From positions 1-24,355 of the forward strand of contig JAADHR010000131.1 of the NCBI GenBank assembly GCA_013151735.1: 24,355 nt of DNA, written 5' to 3'. The stretch comes from Calditrichota bacterium (GTDB taxonomy: Bacteria; Zhuqueibacterota; JdFR-76; BMS3Abin05). Numbering within the stretch: position 1 is the first letter of the stretch; each line of letters opens with the position of its first letter. The position numbers were made by a program, and so were the translations under genes. The notes beneath the pieces were generated by a model, which was not told where the DNA came from, made no database searches, and was given only the letters and a program-made list of their open reading frames with translations. Positions 5,442 through 14,436 of this stretch are shown here, in pieces.

Positions 5442-5753
5442 AAGTAATCCTTTTTGTCATTTCTTCTTTGTGAAAATAAAAAATCAGGGTGTCCCTATTT
5501 ATTGGGCGGTTCAAGTTGAAGAATTATCATTAAAAATTTCAGCATTTTCAATTTGCTTAATACCTCAAAATGATTGGACTTATCCAAAAATATATTTATA
5601 TTTATCCAAAGAATTTTTCAAAATCAAGCTTTTTTATTTTTATTTGTTTTTCCTCTTGCAATAGGCGCAAGAAGGGATTATATTAAAAAAATTTATTTTG
5701 GGTCAAATCTGCCTGTATACATAAAAAAACAACCCCAATCGAGAGGAATTCCG

Positions 5754-6719
5754 ATGATTTTCTGGTATATTCTCTTAGGTCTTATCGTTTTTCTGGTGAT
5801 TTTATTTGTCATTCTTGCGAAGGCTCGTCGTCCCGATCAGTTGTTGCTCATCGAAAAACACGGCACCGTTCAGCCTTATCTGAAACGCTGGTATTTTTCG
5901 AAATCCGTGCTGGCTTTGCCGGCGACAGTAAAGACCATTTCAACGGAAGTAAAGACGCAGGCCCGCGGGAAAATTGATGTCATTATCAAACTGTCGGTAT
6001 CCTTTTTCCCCGACCCGGAACGCGCCGGAAACCTGATTCGGGTGGGAGGATGGACTCCCGATGCCGTTGACCGCGTCGCTCAAGAGCTGTCCGGGACTGT
6101 GCAGGGGCTGGTTGGGGAACTGGTGGAACCCCTTAACATCACGCAGGTGACGCGGGAGAAATTGTCTCACATGCTGCGGCAAAAGCTTCAGGCTCTGGCG
6201 CCAAGTTTTGGAATTACGGTAACCTCTGTGGTTGTTTCCGACGCGGAGGCAGCGGATCAAAAGATTGCAGACGCCATTCGAAAGCAGGAAGAAGCCCGCA
6301 TTCAGGAGGAAATGGAAAAATCGAGCCAGCGATCCCGAATTGCCACAGAAAAACTGCGTTTGGCGGCGGATGATGAAATTGAGCGCATGAAGCACAAAAT
6401 GGAAATGGAACATCTCAAATTACGGGAAATTGAGGAGCTAAAAGCGGCCGAGCTGGAACAAAAACTACTGGAAAAGGAAACCGAAAAAAAGCGTCTGACG
6501 CTGGCGTTAGAGCAGGAGGAAGCCGAACTGCTGAGCCGGCATCCGGAACTGATGATGCTTACGCCGCAGTTAACCCGATTGGTAGAGGCCAGCCAGCAGC
6601 TTAAGAGCGCGAAAACGGTTATTTCACTTTCGCCTGAAATTCAAGACGGATTACCCAGAATTTTACAGACTCTGCTGGAACTGCTTCAGTCCCGTAAGGG
6701 TCAGGAAAAGGAATCGTGA
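5754..6719 (+). CDS. SPFH/band-7 (flotillin/stomatin-like) membrane protein with C-terminal coiled coil
   Basis: GAGAGG lies 7 nt before the ATG at 5754. The longer ORF from 5574 runs through an AT-rich promoter region and is rejected. An N-terminal TM (MIFWYILLGLIVFLVILFVILA) is followed by a ~200-aa domain with SPFH-like motifs (GITVTSVVVSDAEAADQKIADAIRKQEEARIQ). The C-terminus is a charged heptad region rich in E, K and L. Confidence 0.5.
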   Translation: MIFWYILLGLIVFLVILFVILAKARRPDQLLLIEKHGTVQPYLKRWYFSKSVLALPATVKTISTEVKTQARGKIDVIIKLSVSFFPDPERAGNLIRVGGWTPDAVDRVAQELSGTVQGLVGELVEPLNITQVTREKLSHMLRQKLQALAPSFGITVTSVVVSDAEAADQKIADAIRKQEEARIQEEMEKSSQRSRIATEKLRLAADDEIERMKHKMEMEHLKLREIEELKAAELEQKLLEKETEKKRLTLALEQEEAELLSRHPELMMLTPQLTRLVEASQQLKSAKTVISLSPEIQDGLPRILQTLLELLQSRKGQEKES

Positions 6720-6789: not shown

Positions 6790-6843
6790 AATCTTAATCT
6801 TAGTCTTAATTTTAATCTTAGTCTTAATTTTAATCTTAATCTT
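6790..6843. repeat. nine tandem hexamers (consensus AATCTT) organised as 2 x 18-bp higher-order units (AATCTT-AGTCTT-AATTTT), ending 5 nt before the start codon of the giant ORF
   Basis: The sequence reads aatctt aatctt agtctt aatttt aatctt agtctt aatttt aatctt aatctt. The theme continues into the first codons (atg tcc ttc tta agg). Confidence 0.95.
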
Positions 6844-6848
6844 AAACA

Positions 6849-9800
6849 ATGTCCTTCTTAAGGCTCAAACCCTCTTTCCCATCGCTTGTCGGAGAAATTA
6901 GCAAGCGCACGGCTGATGCACCTGTCGATCCCGAACGGCGCGTGGATTTTCACATTGGGAATCCTGTGCAGGATGACTCACTCGACCGGCTCTACAACGC
7001 CGTTCTTTCCGGAGCAGAGTTTCTACAGCCTTTTGCAGAAGATTTCAACGAAAGCGATTTTCTCTCGGATCTCGATGATCCCGATCTGTCCGAATATTTT
7101 AAGCTTTTGTTTGAAACCTCCCGGAAATCGGTGGCGTATTCGCCGGCCGGCGGATTTTCGCCGGGGAACCCGGGAACCCTGACGCGCAAACTGGAGGCCT
7201 TTTTTAATCGTGTTCAAGACTCACCCACACGATACCATTTTGGGGAAAAAGGCGCTCCGGAATTTGCCCTGGCCTCCGGCGGACGCTGGCAGGCCCTAAA
7301 GCTCTTGCTGCAAGTTCTCTTTGAACAGACCGAATATACCTCAACGCAGGGTCTTGTTTTGGGCCGTTTGCCATACCCCCAAATTCTTGCGGCCTGTTCA
7401 AATCAGGTAACTCTCGTCGAGAATTCAGGCCCTTCCTTCTTTCGGAAGCTGGAAGCCGCCCGCAAAAACTCCAAATCCGACGCGCTGCTGTTTGTTTTGC
7501 TGCTTCAAAAAGTACCCCAGGAGGATCGCAAGCGCCTGGGCGACTTTCTGCAGCAGCACCCCGTTCTTTTGATCGAAGCGAACGACTCTTTGCAGGCCGA
7601 AAGTCTGGCATCTTTTTCAAAACTAAAAGGCCAAATGATTCGCATTTTGTCACCGGCTGTCATTCATCCTTACCTGAACTGGTCCAGCCTGTCTTTCATT
7701 TTGGCTCCGGCGGATGTCATTGCGGCCTTTAACCGCCAGCATTTTAAAAAGATGGGGACACCGTCGGCAAGTGAAATCAAACTGCTGAATTTCTTTTTGG
7801 CAGAAGACGGAACCCTTCTGCCAGATCGGATACCGGGGGGGAAAACGCCCGATTTTTCGCGGTCTGAAACGGCTCAGACAAAGGGCCTCGTTTCAGATGT
7901 GCCGTTTCCGGCAGGCCTGTCTACTTTTCTCAAACGTATCCCCAAAATAGCCGAAGCCATCAGTCAAAATATTCAGCACGAAGCGGCTCGTTTGACCGCC
8001 CGTTCCGAACAGATGGCGGCCCGCCTTTCCGAAAGCATCCCGGGGCGCGGAGAGAAGCAGGGATACCCGCCGGCTCAGGATCCGTTTCTTGGAAGGCGCC
8101 AGGAAGACATGGTTCGGGATTTTTTTCGGAATTTGGGGAATCCGTCGTATCAGGAGGACCTGCAAAAATCGTTTCTGTCCGTTTTTCAATACCTTCATCC
8201 GGAGTATCAGCCGGATCATCTGATTCCGGTGAGCGGTTCCGCACGTACGGCGCTGAGCGCCATGGCCGAATTTTGGGACATTCGGGAAGTGATTGTTCCC
8301 GATTTTAGCTGGACTGTAAATGATGCCTTCCCCCGGGTAACGGCCGTTCCTCTCGGGGAAAACCTTCAATTGGATGCCCGCCGTTTCACTTCAGTCCTGC
8401 AAGAGAAAATGGCGGCTGATTCCAACTGGCGTAACACCGGGGCGGTCATTTTGAACAACCCGCACAACGCGACGGGAAAAATCTGGAATGAACGGGACGT
8501 TGAAGCTGTTTTACTTTTTTGTCTGCAAAACGGAATCCGGGTGATCGACGATCTCTCCTATTCAAATGTGGTGATCGCCTCTGCGGACGCGCGGGCGGAG
8601 CGTGTTCCCGTGAAAACCCTCAAAATGCTGGCCATCGGGGCCGTTTCACAGGGTAAACTTCGCCAGAGTCAGGTACGATTTCTGGTGACACTTCAATCCA
8701 TTTCCAAAACCGATTGTAAAGCCGGTGCCCGGCTGGCCGTCTGTGACGTGCCGGACCCGGTGCTTCGGAAAAAACTTTCTGCAGCACTTGCTCCCATTCC
8801 TCCCAACCTAATGGCTGTTTTCATGAGCACGCTGTTTTACCGGCAGGGGGAGGACAAGGTTGCCCGGTTTGCCCGGCTGAGGGATTGGATTATGTCGGAG
8901 CGGACAAAAGCGCTTCAGCGGGAATTTGAATCGTTGTCGTCGGAGGCGAATCCATATCACATGATTTATGTCTCTCCCGAAGGAGCCATGTACCCGCGTC
9001 TGTTTGTAACCGACATGCCCGGCACGGTTCAGATTGAAAAAATCGCTTTTCAACTGGCCGGGCAGGGGATTGGTCTGATTCCAATGACCAATTTTTCACA
9101 AACGGTGGAAGGATTTGATCTGGCCCGGCGGACGTTTCGACTGACCCTTGGCGGGCGGTTGGAAATGGATACCATTCCTCAAAAGGTTCGGCGGTTGGTC
9201 ACGGAATTGTCGGAACAAATCCGACGCCAGGCCGAAAATTACCACTATTATTCTCTGACGGAATCCGATCTTTTTCGGCAGGTGAAAGCCGATGCGGTTA
9301 CCCAACAGCGGCTGAGGGCGGTTCGGGAAAAATCAGATGCCGTGTTTGAAGAAATTCGAAATCTGGCAGCGAGCGAATTTTTGAACGCATGTCCGGAATG
9401 GGCCCGAAAAAACATGGCCGATTCAACGGCTTTGCAGGATTTCTTGACCCAGTTTTTGCCCAGTCGCTGGAGATTTTTCCAGAACCGGCTTTCTGACTGG
9501 CTTCTGATTCGGGAGGCGGTCCGCCTGAACGCGGAGAGTCCCGTTTTCAGGACCACCGTTCAGGAAAATTTTCTGAAGGAATTACAGATGGAGTCGTCCG
9601 GAACCCGCCGAAGACGCTTTTCGAGGCGCCTGTTCGATCGAACGGTTCATCCCACACAGATGTACTCCCTTCAGGTGGAACAGTGGCTCACACGGCTGGC
9701 AAAGGCGAGTGTGGCTCCGGAGGTGTACACGCCGGTATCCGCAAAAATGCTGTTTCGGGCTCTCGTCCAGGAATACGTTGGCGAAAACGTTCCGATTTCT

Positions 9801-12497
9801 TCCCAGATGGAAGCACAGGAAGCCATTTGCGACCTGGAGGCGCTTCATCTGGCCGAAATCTTCAATGAAATCTTTTTCGGGCACTCGCCGGGCGTCGTTC
9901 TTTCTCTGTGGGGCGATTGGGACGGCAGCACCCGCCCGAGTGGTCAGGGGCACACGTTGGTCAGCGGACCGCTCATTGCCAATATTCGGGCACTAACCCT
10001 GTTGGTTCACGGTCTTCAGAAAGAAAACCGGCTGACCGAGGAGGACCTAAAGCAGTTGGAGAAGATTGGGTCGATTGAAAAGCGAATCGAAAATTTTCAA
10101 AATATTCTGCAAAAGATTACCGGTTTGACCAGCCGCCTGGAAGAAAAATACCGGAAAACCATTCCCCTGGAATATTCACCGGGCAAAATACGGCAGTTTT
10201 TACGAAAGCTCGGCCTCTTGCGCGATCCCCTGAAGTCTATTTGGAAACACAACGACCGGAACGAACGCCGGATGCAGCAGTACCGAAAGCAGCGGTCATC
10301 TGAAATCAAACAATTATTCGAAATCAATCGTATCCTGACCGGGATGGTCGAGGCGGCCGTTTCCCGGAACCGGGAAACACTGCAAACTGCGGACACGTTG
10401 TTTTATTTGCAATCCTACAAAAACTATCTCAAGCGATTTTATTTGACGCCTCGCATCCACCAAAAAATTATTCTGGATAAAGATCAGTTTACAATTGACA
10501 CAACGGTTTACAATTTGGTGGAACTCAATGTTCTGGCTAACCAGTACGGGTACGATGGATTTGTCCTGGTGATTCAGGTCAGCATGGCCAGCAGTGCCAG
10601 GGCCATTTTAACCCTTTACCAGAAATTGTGTGAGGAGAAGGCGCGGGTTTTGCGAAAAATACCGGGTCTGCATTTGCCGGATATCCGGGTTGTTCCCCTG
10701 TTTGAAGAGCTGGAGGCTATTCGGCACATTCCGGAATTCCTGGATGAAATCTGGGCGTTTTCCGAGACCACGCGCAAATTGGGTCAGCCTACGGCCGATC
10801 GTTTTCGGGAAATTATTGGGGAGTTTTTTATTGCGGGTTCTGATTTGAGCCAGCAGGTGGGACAATTGAAGGCGTATTCGCTCTATCAGGATGCGCGGGA
10901 AATGCTGGATCGCTGGATGTGGGAAAAGAACCTGTTGGGGAGAATTCGTATTAAATTCGGCTCGGGAGAATCGCCGCAACGACAGGGAGGCTATTACGAT
11001 GCCACGGGAGGCCGGCCGGTTTTTGTTGAAGAATTTTACGAAAAAAACCCAATCGTTGAGTCAATGGAACCCCTGAAAAGGGTTTCTCTCCGCCACGCCC
11101 GGTCCCCTCTGTCCGGAATTCTCAGCCACAGCGATTTTCGAACCTTCCAGTCAAATGTGATGGAACAGCTCCGCGGACTTCGGGCCCAGGAATTGGCGAA
11201 TGTTTTTAATCACATTCGAATCAAGCAGCAAGACTTCTGGACTCGCGTGCTTTCAAGGGCTTCCCGGCTTCCGGTTGAAGGAGACAAAACCTGGACGATT
11301 CTCCGCCACCTCATTCGCAGGGAGGATGATGCCGTATTTCTGGAATTTCTGGATGATGTACAGACCAATTTTAAGCAGATTGTCTACGGCCGCCCTGAAG
11401 ACATGACGGGTATTCACGTGGTTTCCTATTTCTTGTCCCGGACCCTTTTGCCGCTTCGCGACCGCCCCACGGTCCGGCCAAGCAAGGAACCGGCAGTGGA
11501 TCGAAGCCGGGAAATTGTGGAACGCCTTTCCAGTACACTGCCCCTGGCTACTCACGGAACGCTTTTGCGGGCAATCGGCCACAACAAGGCGCAGACGATT
11601 TTGCTGGGAGTCAATCAATTTACGACAGGGCTTTTCCGCGCGACTTACCAATTTTTGGAACGGGGAAACAGGAACCGACTGGAGTTGTTTCAACAACATA
11701 TTTTGCCTCATCTGCCCGTCCGGGATATTTTGAATACCCTTCGGCTGTATCACGATCCTGAATTAACCTGCGTCCGGCAGGTTGAAGATGTGTTCCCGCC
11801 GGGGAATTCGGCCCTGAAAGCCCTGAAAGAGGATCAGTCCGTTTTGAAAGATTTTGTCCCCCTGTTTCAGGAAGAATTACTGCGGAAAAACGGTGTGTTG
11901 GCAAAAGGGCAACTGCCATCCAGAAAAGAATGGGATGATCTGATTCCATTTCTTCGCCCGGATTTGGCGGTTCTTTTACAGGAAGATATTTTTAACACAC
12001 AGCCTGAAGTGCTGCCCGGATGGGCGCACGTCCCTGAAAGCCTTCGTCCGAAATGGGAAGAGGAGTTTATCAGGCGCCGGATTATTGCTGACACTCGTGA
12101 AAAAATGTGGCACATGCTCCGGGAGCCGATTTCCGAACAGGTGCGGAGTTTTATTGAACTGGCCCGGGCGGTGAAATCGCTGTTTTCGCGCGAGTCCCGA
12201 TTTGAGCCTCCAACAGGCAGTGTTTCGCGTGGGCGTGTGACGCGCCTGGCCTCCCAAATTAATGATATGCTCCGAAATGTAGTGGACGACAGCATGCGTC
12301 AGTTTTTACTGACCGCCGTGCAGTATTTTATTTATTTGCCCGAAACCATGAAAGATATTCCGGAAGAGGTGCTCCTTGCCCTGCGGGACATGGAGAAAAT
12401 TCTCAAATTGGATGAAGAGGCACTCACGCGGGAACAACAAAAAATCCTGCTTTCCTATTTTTTGAAAATGGCACGAATCAGTGGAAATAGCGGATAG
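6849..12497 (+). CDS. 1882-aa multidomain protein: degenerate class I/II aminotransferase-like fold + intact class I/II PLP aminotransferase fold + divergent phosphoenolpyruvate carboxylase (PEPC)-like C-terminal domain
   Basis: This is a single uninterrupted 5.6-kb ORF. Residues ~25-300 carry aminotransferase-like landmarks (VDFHIGNP, YSPAGG, ALASGGRWQAL) but no PLP lysine. Residues ~425-700 carry NLGNPS, IPVSGSARTAL, NNPHNATG, IDDLSYSN and SISKTDCKAGARLA, the class I NPxNPTG motif and the SxSKxxxxxGxRxG PLP-lysine motif. Residues ~790-1882 carry the PEPC motifs in canonical order: TVHPTQ (TAHPTE), SLWGDWDGSTRP (SWMGGDRDGNP), FVLVIQVSMASSARAIL (YVISMAKTPSDVL), VVPLFEELEAI (VVPLFETLDDL), IAGSDLSQQVG (IGYSDSAKDAG), KFGSGESPQRQGG (FHGRGGSIGRGG), LLRAIGHNKAQTILLG (LRAIPWIFAWTQNRLML) and a C-terminal ...ARISGNSG (...AGMRNTG). 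Confidence 0.8.
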   Translation: MSFLRLKPSFPSLVGEISKRTADAPVDPERRVDFHIGNPVQDDSLDRLYNAVLSGAEFLQPFAEDFNESDFLSDLDDPDLSEYFKLLFETSRKSVAYSPAGGFSPGNPGTLTRKLEAFFNRVQDSPTRYHFGEKGAPEFALASGGRWQALKLLLQVLFEQTEYTSTQGLVLGRLPYPQILAACSNQVTLVENSGPSFFRKLEAARKNSKSDALLFVLLLQKVPQEDRKRLGDFLQQHPVLLIEANDSLQAESLASFSKLKGQMIRILSPAVIHPYLNWSSLSFILAPADVIAAFNRQHFKKMGTPSASEIKLLNFFLAEDGTLLPDRIPGGKTPDFSRSETAQTKGLVSDVPFPAGLSTFLKRIPKIAEAISQNIQHEAARLTARSEQMAARLSESIPGRGEKQGYPPAQDPFLGRRQEDMVRDFFRNLGNPSYQEDLQKSFLSVFQYLHPEYQPDHLIPVSGSARTALSAMAEFWDIREVIVPDFSWTVNDAFPRVTAVPLGENLQLDARRFTSVLQEKMAADSNWRNTGAVILNNPHNATGKIWNERDVEAVLLFCLQNGIRVIDDLSYSNVVIASADARAERVPVKTLKMLAIGAVSQGKLRQSQVRFLVTLQSISKTDCKAGARLAVCDVPDPVLRKKLSAALAPIPPNLMAVFMSTLFYRQGEDKVARFARLRDWIMSERTKALQREFESLSSEANPYHMIYVSPEGAMYPRLFVTDMPGTVQIEKIAFQLAGQGIGLIPMTNFSQTVEGFDLARRTFRLTLGGRLEMDTIPQKVRRLVTELSEQIRRQAENYHYYSLTESDLFRQVKADAVTQQRLRAVREKSDAVFEEIRNLAASEFLNACPEWARKNMADSTALQDFLTQFLPSRWRFFQNRLSDWLLIREAVRLNAESPVFRTTVQENFLKELQMESSGTRRRRFSRRLFDRTVHPTQMYSLQVEQWLTRLAKASVAPEVYTPVSAKMLFRALVQEYVGENVPISSQMEAQEAICDLEALHLAEIFNEIFFGHSPGVVLSLWGDWDGSTRPSGQGHTLVSGPLIANIRALTLLVHGLQKENRLTEEDLKQLEKIGSIEKRIENFQNILQKITGLTSRLEEKYRKTIPLEYSPGKIRQFLRKLGLLRDPLKSIWKHNDRNERRMQQYRKQRSSEIKQLFEINRILTGMVEAAVSRNRETLQTADTLFYLQSYKNYLKRFYLTPRIHQKIILDKDQFTIDTTVYNLVELNVLANQYGYDGFVLVIQVSMASSARAILTLYQKLCEEKARVLRKIPGLHLPDIRVVPLFEELEAIRHIPEFLDEIWAFSETTRKLGQPTADRFREIIGEFFIAGSDLSQQVGQLKAYSLYQDAREMLDRWMWEKNLLGRIRIKFGSGESPQRQGGYYDATGGRPVFVEEFYEKNPIVESMEPLKRVSLRHARSPLSGILSHSDFRTFQSNVMEQLRGLRAQELANVFNHIRIKQQDFWTRVLSRASRLPVEGDKTWTILRHLIRREDDAVFLEFLDDVQTNFKQIVYGRPEDMTGIHVVSYFLSRTLLPLRDRPTVRPSKEPAVDRSREIVERLSSTLPLATHGTLLRAIGHNKAQTILLGVNQFTTGLFRATYQFLERGNRNRLELFQQHILPHLPVRDILNTLRLYHDPELTCVRQVEDVFPPGNSALKALKEDQSVLKDFVPLFQEELLRKNGVLAKGQLPSRKEWDDLIPFLRPDLAVLLQEDIFNTQPEVLPGWAHVPESLRPKWEEEFIRRRIIADTREKMWHMLREPISEQVRSFIELARAVKSLFSRESRFEPPTGSVSRGRVTRLASQINDMLRNVVDDSMRQFLLTAVQYFIYLPETMKDIPEEVLLALRDMEKILKLDEEALTREQQKILLSYFLKMARISGNSG

Positions 12498-12501
12498 AAG
12501 A

Positions 12502-13030
12502 AAGACACACCCCTAAATCCGCCTCTTAATAGAGGGGACTTTGGTGGGGTGGTCTTGGGGAGAGCGGGGAAAAAGGTGAAATGCGCTGTTTTTGGTAAGA
12601 TTTTAGGACTTTGCAAGAATAAAAATCCCCTCTTGAGAGGGGTGGTCTGCCTCCGGCAGAGCGGGGTGTGTGACGGTGTTTATTTTTGAGGGTAGTATTT
12701 GAATTTCAAATGGGAAAAGTAAAAGGACACACCCCTAAATCCCCTCTTAATAGAGGGGACTTTGGTGGGGTGGTTTTGGGGAGAGCAGGAAAAAAGTGAA
12801 ATGCGCTGTTTTTGGTAAGATTTTAGGATTTTGCAAGAATTAAAAATCCCCTCTTGAGAGGGGTGGTCGGCCTCCGGCAGAGCGGGGTGTGTGACGGTGT
12901 TTATTTTTGAGGGTAGTATTTGAATTTCAAATGGGAAAAGTGAAAGGACACACCCCTAAATCCCCTCTTAATAGAGGGGACTTTAGTTAAGTGGCTTTGG
13001 GAAAGAAGGGGAAAAAGGGGAAAAGAATTA
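12502..13030. repeat. ~221-bp tandem direct repeat, 2 full near-identical copies (~96%) plus a diverging third partial copy, filling the intergenic region
   Basis: Unit starts (gacacacccc) are at 12504, 12726 and 12947. Each unit has two GC-rich hairpins: cccctc-ttaata-gagggg and cccctc-ttga-gagggg. The second is flanked by an A/T run, giving a minus-strand intrinsic-terminator shape. Each unit also has 9-10-bp terminal inverted repeats gacacacccc...ggggtgtgtgac, a T-tract, and a perfect 15-bp palindrome ATTTGAATTTCAAAT. Confidence 0.9.
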
Positions 13031-13122
13031 CCCCATTCGGGTAAAAATCTGCTTCACACATCTTACATCATTCATCCCCTGATTTGTCAGGGAATACTAC
13101 TCACCCTATCGAGGAGTTAAAA

Positions 13123-14436
13123 ATGAAACCAGAGATTTACGTCATCAGTTTGGGCGCGGATAAACCCAAAGGTGTACCGGGATGGCCAAATGCCGAATTG
13201 GATCCAAAGGAACGGGCAGCAGAACTTTTCAAAAAGGTGAAATCCTTTTTCCCCAATTACACCTTTAGCGGCGGTGAGCTTTTGGACAGTACAAACGATG
13301 CGTTCAATGCATTTAAGGCCCGCGTCGAAAAGGCCCAACCGGATGGTGTGCTCATCTTCGGGCTGGCCATTCCACACCATACCGTGAAGCGTTTTGGTGA
13401 ATTAAACATACCCATGCTCTGGGTGAATGATCCTTATGGCGGCGATCTTTATTATTTGGACGCGATGGAGGTGGGACTTCAGGAGAAATGGCCGTTTGTG
13501 GGGTTGAGTTCGTCCCGTTTTTCCGATATTGGGAAAAAACTGCGTTATTTCGACGTCATTCGTGGATTGCGCGACTCCAGAATTCTGGCCGTCCGGGATC
13601 GTGCGTATCCGGCAGACTATGTGGAAAAAATCAGGCGAAACCTGGGGGTCGAGATTCTTGTTTTGAATCACGAGGCCTTTAATGCCGTGTACGAGAATGT
13701 GTCTGAGGAAGAAGCCAAACAGTGGGCAGAGCGCTGGATTTCGGAAGCAGAAAAGGTGATGGAACCGCAATTTGAGGATGTTCTGGCGGGAGCCAAAACC
13801 TACCTGGCCCTGAAGGAACTCATGGCCCGGGAAAAGGCCAACACCGTCACGGTGGATTGCCTTGATTTGGTTTACAGAAAAAAGATTTCCGCCTATCCCT
13901 GTCTGGCGTTTTTTCAGTTGAACAATGAGGGCTCCACCGGTATTTGCGAGGCAGACATCGATTCGGCCCTCACGCAATTGATTATCCGCTTTTTGGCTGA
14001 ACGTCCGGGGTATGTTTCCGATCCTGTGATTGATCAGGGAACCGGACAGATTGTTTACGCCCATTGTGTAGCGGCCTCCAGGATGAAAGGGCCGAAGCGG
14101 GAAGCCATGCCGTACATTTTGCGGTCGCATGCCGAGGACAATTCGGGCGCCTCGGTTCAGGTAAAAATGACGCCGGGTGAAATTATGTCGACCATAAAAT
14201 TTGATATCAAAACCAATCGGATTGCGTTTCACAAGGGTAAAATCGCAGGCAACATTGACACCGATCGGGCCTGCCGAACAAAGGTAGCCGTGGAAGTGGA
14301 CACGGACGCCCTGGCCCGAAATTACCAGGTGTCAAAATTTGGCTGGCACCGCGTTTCCTTTTACGGCGACTGGGAGACGGAAATCCGCGAGTTGGCTCAG
14401 CTCATGCAGTGGGAATTTTGGGACGAATTAAAATAG
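13123..14436 (+). CDS. hypothetical 438-aa cytoplasmic protein of unknown function (weak, unverified resemblance to sugar-isomerase-like folds)
   Basis: GAGGAG lies 6 nt upstream of the ATG at 13123. The TTG at 13084 is a less likely start. The composition is protein-like, and the internal antisense ORF 13402-14232 looks like a shadow. No motif I can assign with confidence. CEADIDSAL and VYAHCVA are only loosely reminiscent of FucI/AraA-type metal-site motifs. Confidence 0.55.
   Translation: MKPEIYVISLGADKPKGVPGWPNAELDPKERAAELFKKVKSFFPNYTFSGGELLDSTNDAFNAFKARVEKAQPDGVLIFGLAIPHHTVKRFGELNIPMLWVNDPYGGDLYYLDAMEVGLQEKWPFVGLSSSRFSDIGKKLRYFDVIRGLRDSRILAVRDRAYPADYVEKIRRNLGVEILVLNHEAFNAVYENVSEEEAKQWAERWISEAEKVMEPQFEDVLAGAKTYLALKELMAREKANTVTVDCLDLVYRKKISAYPCLAFFQLNNEGSTGICEADIDSALTQLIIRFLAERPGYVSDPVIDQGTGQIVYAHCVAASRMKGPKREAMPYILRSHAEDNSGASVQVKMTPGEIMSTIKFDIKTNRIAFHKGKIAGNIDTDRACRTKVAVEVDTDALARNYQVSKFGWHRVSFYGDWETEIRELAQLMQWEFWDELK

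Follow-up and report, generated by a model that had tools for sequence, protein, structure and literature searches.

Can a class-I aminotransferase carry its own inactive dimer partner within a single polypeptide? This question is raised by a locus in the window analysed here (a stretch of 24,355 nucleotides from a Calditrichota bacterium), where an initial annotation had placed two aminotransferase-like folds in tandem at positions 6921-8950. The first was said to have lost the PLP lysine and the second to be intact, and the pair was interpreted as a duplicated and degenerated half that supplies the dimer partner in cis. The strings on which this proposal was built (VDFHIGNP, YSPAGG, ALASGGRWQALKLL, LQKVPQ and LSPAV) are all present in one forward-strand frame, but the two folds do not form a product of about 700 residues by themselves. 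Both belong to an open reading frame at 6849..12497 (+ strand), complete in the ORF list from ATG to stop and encoding 1882 amino acids, and the end assigned at position 8950 (aa 700) truncates the second fold, which extends to about aa 797 (nt 9239). The order of modules is a catalytically dead aminotransferase fold (module 1), a live aminotransferase (module 2) and a PEP-carboxylase (PEPC)-like module (module 3), so that the tandem folds make up the N-terminal 40% of a conserved protein.

Full-length homologs (n=103) are between 1796 and 1924 aa long. Relatives of the three-module protein occur in at least 384 species genomes spread over several phyla, the carriers including Calditrichota, Ignavibacteriota (among them Melioribacter roseus), KSB1, Marinimicrobia, Anaerolineae and Acidobacteriota; a second search gave 634 clusters, with possible overlap between the two sets. 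The named database entries for this family read only "aminotransferase". A frame of such length could in principle be an assembly or annotation artefact, in which an aminotransferase gene and a PEPC gene were fused, and a few shorter database entries (P0102, P0103 and P0233) would agree with that. However, the same unbroken frame of about 1870 aa recurs on over 100 contigs assembled independently from different samples, and the apparent stand-alone PEPC-like relative that was checked (P0233) sits at a contig edge and was rejected as a fragment. We deem the artefact refuted, its remaining probability being negligible.

Pfam, PDB matches and hhalign identify module 2 (8079..9239, + strand; aa 411-797) as a complete class-I aminotransferase domain. 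Specifically, the Pfam model PF00155 (Aminotran_1_2) matches aa 457-711 with 43.2 bits (cut-off 19.7), and the alignment to the Thermus aspartate aminotransferase AspAT (1BJW) has an E-value of 5e-10. In the latter, Lys620, Asp568, Asn540, Tyr571, Arg628 and Arg764 fall on Lys234, Asp203, Asn175, Tyr206, Arg242 and Arg361, which we take to be, respectively, the Schiff-base lysine, the residue facing the pyridine nitrogen, the two residues at O3′ (Asn and Tyr), the phosphate-binding arginine and the arginine for the alpha-carboxylate. All six are invariant (54/54 sequences), in agreement with the initial description of this fold as intact. By its Pfam score and catalytic residues module 2 is a class I/II aminotransferase, and it is predicted to be active, with the codon of the putative PLP Schiff-base lysine, Lys620, at 8706..8708 (+ strand) within the motif SISKTD (nt 8697-8714). 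The module also carries Trp488, Ser617 and Ser619. Trp488 aligns by hhalign with Trp125 of the Thermus enzyme and the invariant Arg466 adjoins the position of its Lys101, both of which were counted in favour of a dicarboxylate substrate. None of the NCBIfam equivalog models reached its cut-off against module 2 (best scores of 20-40 bits, cut-offs of 290-620).

The first fold is of a different kind. Module 1 (6849..7823, + strand; aa 1-325) was linked to aminotransferases by predicted structure only: its AF2 model is confident and well folded and shows the fold-type I large-domain fold, the large domain being present together with the N-terminal segment, and the C-terminal small domain being absent. 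At the sequence level the module falls outside the class I/II family, and no link to aminotransferases emerged from BLASTP of module 1 against module 2 or from phmmer and family-profile searches of the PDB. Pfam returned no match in any of 25 module 1 members, and none of the 138 matches obtained when the profile was run against 1.84 billion representative proteins is an aminotransferase. Two tandem fold-type I folds are nonetheless present as first proposed, the one recognized by predicted structure and the other by Pfam and 1BJW. For finer comparison hhalign was run locally on three pairs (module 1-module 2, module 1-1BJW and module 3-Ppc); all three alignments are collinear with motifs in register, and their E-values of 0.02-0.06 allow residue mapping but do not prove homology.

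Where an S-x-S-K site would be expected in module 1, at the end of strand f, the sequence reads LSPAV (7647..7661, + strand; aa 267-271), and the family consensus is L-(T/S)-P-(A/G/S)-(I/V). A lysine might have appeared nearby after proper alignment, but none is found at positions 266-273 in any of the 90 sequences examined, so the loss of the PLP lysine is confirmed. An N-P-x-N-P-T-G motif, whose place had been assigned to LQKVPQ (aa 219-224), was not found in the module either. The other cofactor ligands (Asp/Asn/Tyr/Arg) are lost as well: in the hhalign register Asp203 of 1BJW corresponds to Ala244, which is variable, Tyr206 to Asn245 and Arg242 to Ser280. Between the two folds lies a variable linker of 85 residues and low conservation (7824..8078, + strand; aa 326-410), of which aa 355-396 are predicted as a 42-residue helix (AF2 secondary structure).

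Having lost all PLP-binding residues and all detectable sequence similarity to aminotransferases, module 1 might be a decaying, functionless remnant of an internal duplication. This is very improbable, since 23 positions are invariant and 18 nearly so across 25 sequences that share only about 28% identity, relatives in several phyla retain the whole module, and its model is confident and well folded. To call this half degenerated is misleading in view of the same 23 invariant residues, and an origin by internal duplication has no support from hhalign: the halves resemble each other (E 0.019) no better than module 1 resembles AspAT (E 0.054), and neither is nearer to its neighbour than to class-I aminotransferases in general.

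Some of what is conserved in module 1 would not be needed by a pure scaffold. The module keeps the G-x-P motif (FHIGNP, within RVDFHIGNP, aa 31-39), and the surroundings of the former cofactor pocket are rich in invariant Arg, Glu and Asn, so a ligand-binding role is possible. Likewise, the invariant Glu243 beside the Asp position may point to some residual ligand binding. The segment ALASGGRWQALKLL occupies aa 140-153.

Which function, then, would maintain such a fold in front of an active aminotransferase? The active sites of fold-type I enzymes are formed from two subunits, and module 1 is most likely the built-in partner of module 2 for this reason. One polypeptide holds both an active and a lysine-less half, as a pseudo-heterodimer would, and one loop of module 1 is of interest here. 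The YSPAGG loop (7137..7154, + strand; aa 97-102, placed by translation, hhalign register and column counts), in which Tyr97, Pro99, Gly101 and Gly102 are invariant, corresponds by hhalign to Tyr64*-x-Pro-x-x-Gly of the Thermus AspAT. We take Tyr64* to be Tyr70* in pig AspAT numbering, a residue donated to the active site of the partner subunit. The placement of Tyr97 on Tyr64* is the most confident stretch of the module 1-1BJW alignment, which as a whole is not significant (E 0.054). In module 2 the equivalent column (about aa 429-430) is variable and has no conserved tyrosine. A donated tyrosine kept in the dead domain and missing from the live one is an asymmetry that fits a partner in cis. 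Further relatives of the tandem are informative here: P0222 (650 aa) and P0225 (726 aa) are complete genes, distantly related, that encode the dead-plus-live tandem alone, with neither the PEPC part nor the SPFH neighbour described below. The persistence of the tandem in these genes, together with the strong conservation of module 1, favours a cis pseudo-dimer of modules 1 and 2, which is plausible on this comparative evidence. Residue coupling added no inter-domain signal: in a mean-field DCA of 280 full-length sequences (Meff 229) the first module 1-module 2 pair ranked 326th, and the top couplings, above which no such signal rose, were gap or alignment artefacts of the variable loop at aa 59-75. 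Separately, it may be recorded that the PLP synthase genes pdxS/pdxT adjoin one of the two short tandem genes.

The main competing explanation is that the live domains pair in trans across two chains through oligomerisation of the PEPC part, which could happen because PEPCs are tetramers. In that case the dead domain would not be the dimer partner and would have been repurposed for ligand sensing or docking, for instance as an allosteric site or as the surface that the SPFH protein or the PEPC module contacts, in the manner of the GabR/MocR/PdxR regulators, whose effector domain has an aminotransferase fold. We hold this to be possible but somewhat unlikely: with the partner-donated tyrosine invariant in the dead domain and without a conserved equivalent in the live one, both sites of a trans homodimer would miss that residue, and the tandem persists in relatives that possess neither the PEPC module nor the SPFH neighbour.

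The remainder of the chain, module 3 (9240..12494, + strand; aa 798-1882), was overlooked in the initial annotation, as was the obligate SPFH neighbour. Its 1085 residues are assigned a PEP-carboxylase fold by AF2, Foldseek and hhalign. The model is of high quality (pLDDT 88.6, pTM 0.91), and all 35 Foldseek matches at E<=1e-3 are PEPCs (35/35), the next match having an E-value of 0.06; as modelled, the module has the PEPC fold. Sequence models scarcely recognize it. The Pfam PEPC models (PF00311, PF14010) gave no match on module 3, TIGR02751 reached 11.6 bits (cut-off 146), a profile search of the PDB with module 3 found no PEPC, and the Pfam and NCBIfam PEPC models applied to the window protein and 26 members yielded one faint match only. 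The alignment to E. coli Ppc is collinear and fits the motifs, its E-value of 0.056 not being significant alone. These motifs are TVHPTQ (His934), WGDWDGSxRPSGQG, QVSMS, IPLFE (Glu1286), AGSDLSQ (Asp1332), GSGExxQRQGG (Arg1378), RDRPTVR (Arg1539) and LRAIGH (Arg1574). In this register His934 corresponds to His138 and Glu1286/Asp1332 to Glu506/Asp543 of the E. coli enzyme, while Arg1146 or Arg1149, Arg1378, Arg1539 and Arg1574 correspond to Arg396, Arg587, Arg699 and Arg713, all of them invariant; in E. coli we take these to be the catalytic histidine, the metal ligands and the PEP-binding arginines, respectively. Two replacements, both conserved, are Gln1335 for Lys546 and Ser1372 for Arg581, residues of the bicarbonate/Gly-rich loop region (the latter two being the places of the G-Y-S-D-S-x-K motif and the Gly-rich loop). 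With these two equivalents lost and no PEPC threshold reached, the chemistry of module 3 may differ from that of PEPC.

Upstream of the large gene lies a gene for an SPFH/Band-7 membrane protein (5754..6719, + strand; 321 aa when started from Met61 of the listed ORF), identified by Pfam PF01145 (Band_7; 28.5 bits, cut-off 23.6) and with an N-terminal membrane helix visible in the translation as the hydrophobic stretch MIFWYILLGLIVFLVILFVIL. An SPFH homolog is found upstream on the same strand at 74/74 loci, directly adjoining the large gene at 72/74 and lying no more than 905 nt away at the remaining two; beyond the SPFH gene no conservation of the neighbourhood was seen. Such co-inheritance suggests that the enzyme is active on, or close to, an SPFH assembly bound to the membrane. 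The PADLOC defence-system models had no match to the large protein or the SPFH protein, and literature searches gave nothing relevant on an aminotransferase-PEPC fusion or an SPFH link.

Taken jointly, these observations lead to a reading that we consider slightly more probable than not, namely a cis partner in module 1, a route from PEPC through oxaloacetate to aspartate, and a membrane site linked to SPFH. Module 1 would serve module 2 as an internal dimer partner, giving one active site per chain; Tyr97 would stand in for the partner-derived Tyr70* in the module 2 site, whose entrance would be bordered by the conserved HF-x-L-K-G-T-P-S-A-S-E segment (aa 298-309). The conserved lysine of its KGTPS motif is K302 in most members, and the window protein carries K300, K301 and M302. 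Module 3, joined to the aminotransferase without a linker, would be a divergent PEP carboxylase, so that PEP and bicarbonate could be converted to oxaloacetate and immediately transaminated to aspartate, all in one protein. A bolder version would see an unrecognised third PEPC lineage in permanent fusion with a single-chain, half-live and half-dead pseudo-dimeric aminotransferase, which with the obligate SPFH partner would make up a membrane-tethered assembly for channelling PEP and bicarbonate to aspartate, with the dead pocket reused for allostery or docking; this we put forward as speculative and rather unlikely.

Should modules 1 and 2 indeed form a pseudo-dimer in cis, this would be (i) to our knowledge the first class-I aminotransferase with an inactive partner in the same chain, (ii) a design, found in nature, in which each single chain has one active site and (iii) a clear case of a PLP pseudoenzyme domain maintained by selection. 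Free oxaloacetate is unstable, and a fusion to a divergent PEPC, by avoiding it, would be a new organisation of the PEP-oxaloacetate-aspartate node. The PEPC-like module would widen the known PEPC family, and because the entries are named only "aminotransferase", metabolic reconstructions of the carrier groups may miss an anaplerotic enzyme. Finally, the client proteins of the bacterial SPFH family are, as far as we know, mostly unknown, and the strict pairing ties a metabolic enzyme to this membrane-scaffold family.

How does this protein compare with known systems? Class I/II aminotransferases (PF00155; 1BJW, E. coli YbdL, kynurenine aminotransferases and PatB-type C-S lyases) share the fold and catalytic residues of module 2 and the large-domain fold of module 1. 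They are, however, single-domain homodimers of about 400 aa, whereas here a lysine-less and a live copy are joined in one chain by an 85-residue linker and fused to a further module (about 1085 aa), and module 2 is far from all curated substrate-specific families. Similarly, PEPCs (E. coli Ppc 1JQN and Arabidopsis PPC1; archaeal 3ODM) have the fold of module 3 over about 1050-1200 aligned columns, and the module keeps their motif order, catalytic histidine, two metal ligands and four arginines. It differs in having no significant sequence match to either family, in exceeding E. coli Ppc by about 200 residues, in its Gln and Ser for Lys546 and Arg581 with an altered Gly-rich loop, and in always being fused to the aminotransferase tandem. 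The MocR/GabR/PdxR regulators also use an aminotransferase fold as a domain other than a normal enzyme, but theirs keeps the PLP lysine and is fused to a DNA-binding domain.

The closest parallels concern the pairing itself, and in view of them the description of the arrangement as an unusual evolutionary solution for this fold was overstated. In the heterotetrameric aminotransferase SerTA (Ser4/Ser5) of Serratia sp. ATCC 39006, a shortened, lysine-less fold-type I subunit partners a complete one, and residues of the inactive partner are required for activity (PMC11726168). Modules 1 and 2 resemble this pair, yet Ser4 and Ser5 are distinct chains, of the sugar-aminotransferase type, whose genes lie in a secondary-metabolite cluster, whereas the present protein is one chain, of class-I type and fused to a PEPC-like module. 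The LCB1 half of serine palmitoyltransferase (SPT, LCB1/LCB2) likewise has no PLP lysine. In most EhV (coccolithovirus) genomes the LCB1 and LCB2 halves are fused into one gene (PMC5371807, citing Han et al. 2006). The fused SPT is a fold-type I pair in which one half is without the PLP lysine, an intramolecular pseudo-dimer like the one proposed here; unlike the three-module protein, it belongs to the alpha-oxoamine synthase subfamily, performs a different chemistry and carries no third enzymatic module.

In the window, which is the entire contig of a Calditrichaeota MAG, the span 6921-8950 falls within a single forward-strand ORF of the ORF list (6849..12497, 1882 aa), whose product carries only the name "aminotransferase" in the database. 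The initial annotation had described here two aminotransferase folds in tandem, the first without its PLP lysine and the second complete, and the strings that it quoted are all found in this ORF: RVDFHIGNP (aa 31-39), YSPAGG (aa 97-102), ALASGGRWQALKLL (aa 140-153), LQKVPQ (aa 219-224), LSPAV (aa 267-271) and SISKTD, which contains K620. Structure prediction and alignments confirm this tandem (module 1, aa 1-325; module 2, aa 411-797), with a third module (aa 798-1882) behind it. The end at 8950 was placed too early: module 2 extends to about aa 797, so that this coordinate truncates the second fold.

Sequence searches with module 1 gave little. BLASTP against the second half of the tandem returned an E-value of 27, phmmer and a 25-sequence profile found nothing in the PDB, and Pfam matched none of the 25 members. 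Against 1.84 billion representative proteins the profile retrieved 138 proteins, with no ordinary aminotransferase among them; the full-length matches and two shorter ones that were examined share the architecture of the large protein and the others are short fragments, with one exception, the repetitive MyTH4-domain protein P0228 (E 3e-6). It is structure prediction only that reveals the aminotransferase fold of module 1, and there it is clear. Specifically, the AlphaFold2 model of aa 1-420, built from a 90-sequence alignment (pLDDT 85, pTM 0.77), has a seven-stranded alpha/beta core and gave 662 Foldseek matches in the PDB at E<=1e-3, the 50 listed ones all being class-I-type aminotransferase-fold PLP enzymes. 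The matches cover the large domain; past aa 316 the model continues with a low-confidence stretch and a 42-residue helix (aa 355-396), and the C-terminal small domain is absent from it.

The initial annotation had named two outcomes that would count against a Lys-less first half: another fold, or a lysine in the corresponding place. The fold is aminotransferase-like and no lysine occurs at positions 266-273 in any of 90 relatives, where strand f (aa 263-267) is followed by S-P-A-V, so the observation survives its own test. The sole conserved lysine, K302 (83 of 90 sequences), lies 30 residues downstream of the strand f region, within the most conserved block of the module, HF-x-L-K-G-T-P-S-A-S-E (aa 298-309, nt 7740-7775, + strand); the window protein and its closest relatives have Met at position 302 and two Lys immediately before it (HFKKMGTPSASE). 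The N-P-x-N-P-T-G motif is missing from module 1 as well, and the hhalign register to the Thermus thermophilus AspAT (the sequence used is identical to 1BJW chain A across all 382 residues) pairs D203 with the variable A244, Y206 with N245 and R242 with S280. Module 1 is under strong selection: 23 positions never vary in a set of 25 sequences that share about 28% identity. Also conserved around the former cofactor pocket are FHIGNP, S143-G144-G145, E243, N245, S252, R255 and R265.

Module 2 is, by its conserved residues, a complete class-I aminotransferase. Pfam Aminotran_1_2 covers aa 457-711 (43 bits, cut-off 19.7), and the PDB matches are PatB-type C-S lyases, kynurenine aminotransferases, YbdL and AspATs. 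With hhalign, the profile built from aa 400-800 matches 1BJW at E 5e-10 and places W488, N540, D568, Y571, K620, R628 and R764 on W125, N175, D203, Y206, K234, R242 and R361; each of the seven is found unchanged in all 54 relatives compared. Sequence alone gives no substrate, the module falling far under the cut-off of every curated substrate-specific model. The invariant Arg466 adjoins the position of Lys101 in the 1BJW alignment, and together with Trp488 it would be compatible with a dicarboxylate substrate.

How the two halves might pair is suggested by module 1, in which Tyr97, Pro99, Gly101 and Gly102 are invariant. The counterpart of the Tyr97 loop in 1BJW is Y64-A-P-P-A-G, within the most reliable stretch of an alignment that as a whole has only E 0.054, and both loops have the same helix-loop-helix-strand surroundings. 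In AspAT, Tyr70* (pig numbering; the asterisk marks a residue donated to the active site of the partner subunit) binds the partner's PLP phosphate, and the aligned Tyr64 of 1BJW corresponds to this residue. Module 2 has no conserved Tyr at the equivalent site, the column around aa 429-430 being variable; thus each half retains what a complementary pair would need. K302 and the G-T-P-S segment presumably lie, in an approximate mapping, at Arg292*-Ser296* of AspAT, part of the partner's active site, which roughly favours the same arrangement. The strong conservation of module 1 and the existence of relatives that encode the tandem alone (below) point the same way. We therefore lean slightly towards modules 1 and 2 forming a pseudo-dimer in cis, a plausible reading of this indirect evidence. 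Mean-field DCA on 280 sequences yielded alignment artefacts only. Given that PEPCs form tetramers, two live domains could instead pair with each other in trans, leaving module 1 a regulatory role, and the residues conserved around its former pocket do hint at ligand binding or docking; we consider this less likely, as Tyr97 is invariant in module 1 but has no conserved counterpart in module 2. The proposal that the first half is "duplicated and degenerated" finds no support here, since the two halves (hhalign E 0.019) are no closer to each other than module 1 is to the Thermus AspAT.

A divergent PEPC-fold module begins directly after module 2, at about aa 797. Its AlphaFold2 model (aa 801-1882, pLDDT 88.6, pTM 0.91) has significant Foldseek matches exclusively to PEP carboxylases, namely 28 plant/E. 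coli chains (about 1050-1200 aligned columns, E about 1e-10) and 7 archaeal-type chains (E about 1e-6), the next match having E 0.06. The module reaches no PEPC family model threshold; its profile is collinear with E. coli Ppc (from NC_000913.3) across 734 columns (E 0.056), with the PEPC motifs in order: DRTVHPTQ (LTAHPTE in E. coli), WGDWDGSxRPSGQG (SWMGGDRDGNP), QVSMS (VISMA), IPLFE (APLFE), AGSDLSQ (GYSDSAK), GSGEPMQRQGG (GRGGSIGRGG), RDRPTVR (GSRPAKR) and LRAIGH (LRAIPW). The equivalents of His138, Arg396, Glu506, Asp543, Arg587, Arg699 and Arg713 are invariant, and conserved Gln1335 and Ser1372 stand for Lys546 and Arg581. Module 3 probably still binds Mg-PEP, and carboxylation is putative and unproven. 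The obvious reading would be a route from PEP to aspartate within one protein, in which PEP and HCO3- would give oxaloacetate, to be converted with glutamate to aspartate.

The family is widespread: searching with the whole protein retrieved 103 full-length homologs and the module 3 query 634 clusters, and a relative is encoded in at least 384 species genomes, among them Calditrichota, Ignavibacteriota (including Melioribacter roseus), KSB1, Marinimicrobia, Anaerolineae, Acidobacteriota and Kryptoniota. Among the 120 listed clusters PF00155 occurs in nearly all and PF00311 in none; the five in which Pfam recognises no domain are shorter (940-1315 aa). Two complete genes of relatives, P0222 (L085:452-2404, 650 aa) and P0225 (L086:8001-10181, 726 aa), encode the dead-plus-live tandem alone: they lack the PEPC part, have no SPFH gene beside them, and the lysine is again missing from the first half. 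The tandem is therefore an independent unit. After the P0225 gene come pdxT/pdxS, which encode PLP synthase, and the live domain of P0225 has IIENNAY vs the family's VIDDLSY, so that Asn may replace the Asp partner of the pyridine nitrogen.

A gene for an SPFH/Band-7 membrane protein (5754..6719, + strand; listed as ORF 5574-6719, the TTG start of which adds about 60 residues and is likely spurious, the true start probably being 5754) immediately precedes the large gene. An SPFH homolog (41-82% identity) is found upstream on the same strand in all 74 related loci with sufficient flanking sequence, from several phyla; in 72 of them 24-382 nt separate its end from the large gene, and in the remaining two it lies no more than 905 nt away. 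Across phyla it is better conserved than the large protein (41-53% vs 34-37% identity). The remaining neighbours are not conserved across these loci, and defence-system models matched neither protein. On an Ignavibacteriota-like contig (L002:14705-17565) genes for an HTH_6/SIS regulator, an aminotransferase and an ATP-dependent PEP carboxykinase come after the large gene, and in locus L004 those for 2-oxoglutarate dehydrogenase E1 and E2 are found upstream of it; both arrangements fit the PEP/oxaloacetate node, and neither is conserved. Tandem repeats flank the large gene in the window: about 9 copies of AATCTT (or an 18-nt unit about three times) at 6790-6845, ending 3 nt before the ATG, and about 2.5 copies of a unit of about 221 nt at 12496-13022, from the stop codon onward, each with one or two short GC-rich hairpins (CCCCTCT-TAAT-AGAGGGG, +; CCCCTCT-CAAG-AGGGG, -). 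Past these, ORF 13084-14436 (+) has a weak NCBIfam likeness to sulfoquinovose isomerase/L-arabinose isomerase (E 2e-11, far under cut-off) and no Pfam match.

A literature search turned up no paper on a fusion of aminotransferase and PEPC, nor on a link to SPFH, and the combination of three-module protein and SPFH partner seems not to have been described; this full architecture is a more interesting result than the tandem alone. Active and inactive fold-type I subunits are known as partners in SerTA (Ser4/Ser5), where a short Lys-less subunit is needed for activity, in a paper that presents itself as the first on a heterooligomeric aminotransferase (PMC11726168), whereas here both halves lie in a single chain. 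Such a single-chain fusion of two halves, as in modules 1 and 2, is reported for SPT in most coccolithoviruses (PMC5371807). Because SerTA and fused SPT already show active/inactive pairing or fusion, the dead-plus-live tandem varies an established principle and extends it to a new subfamily.
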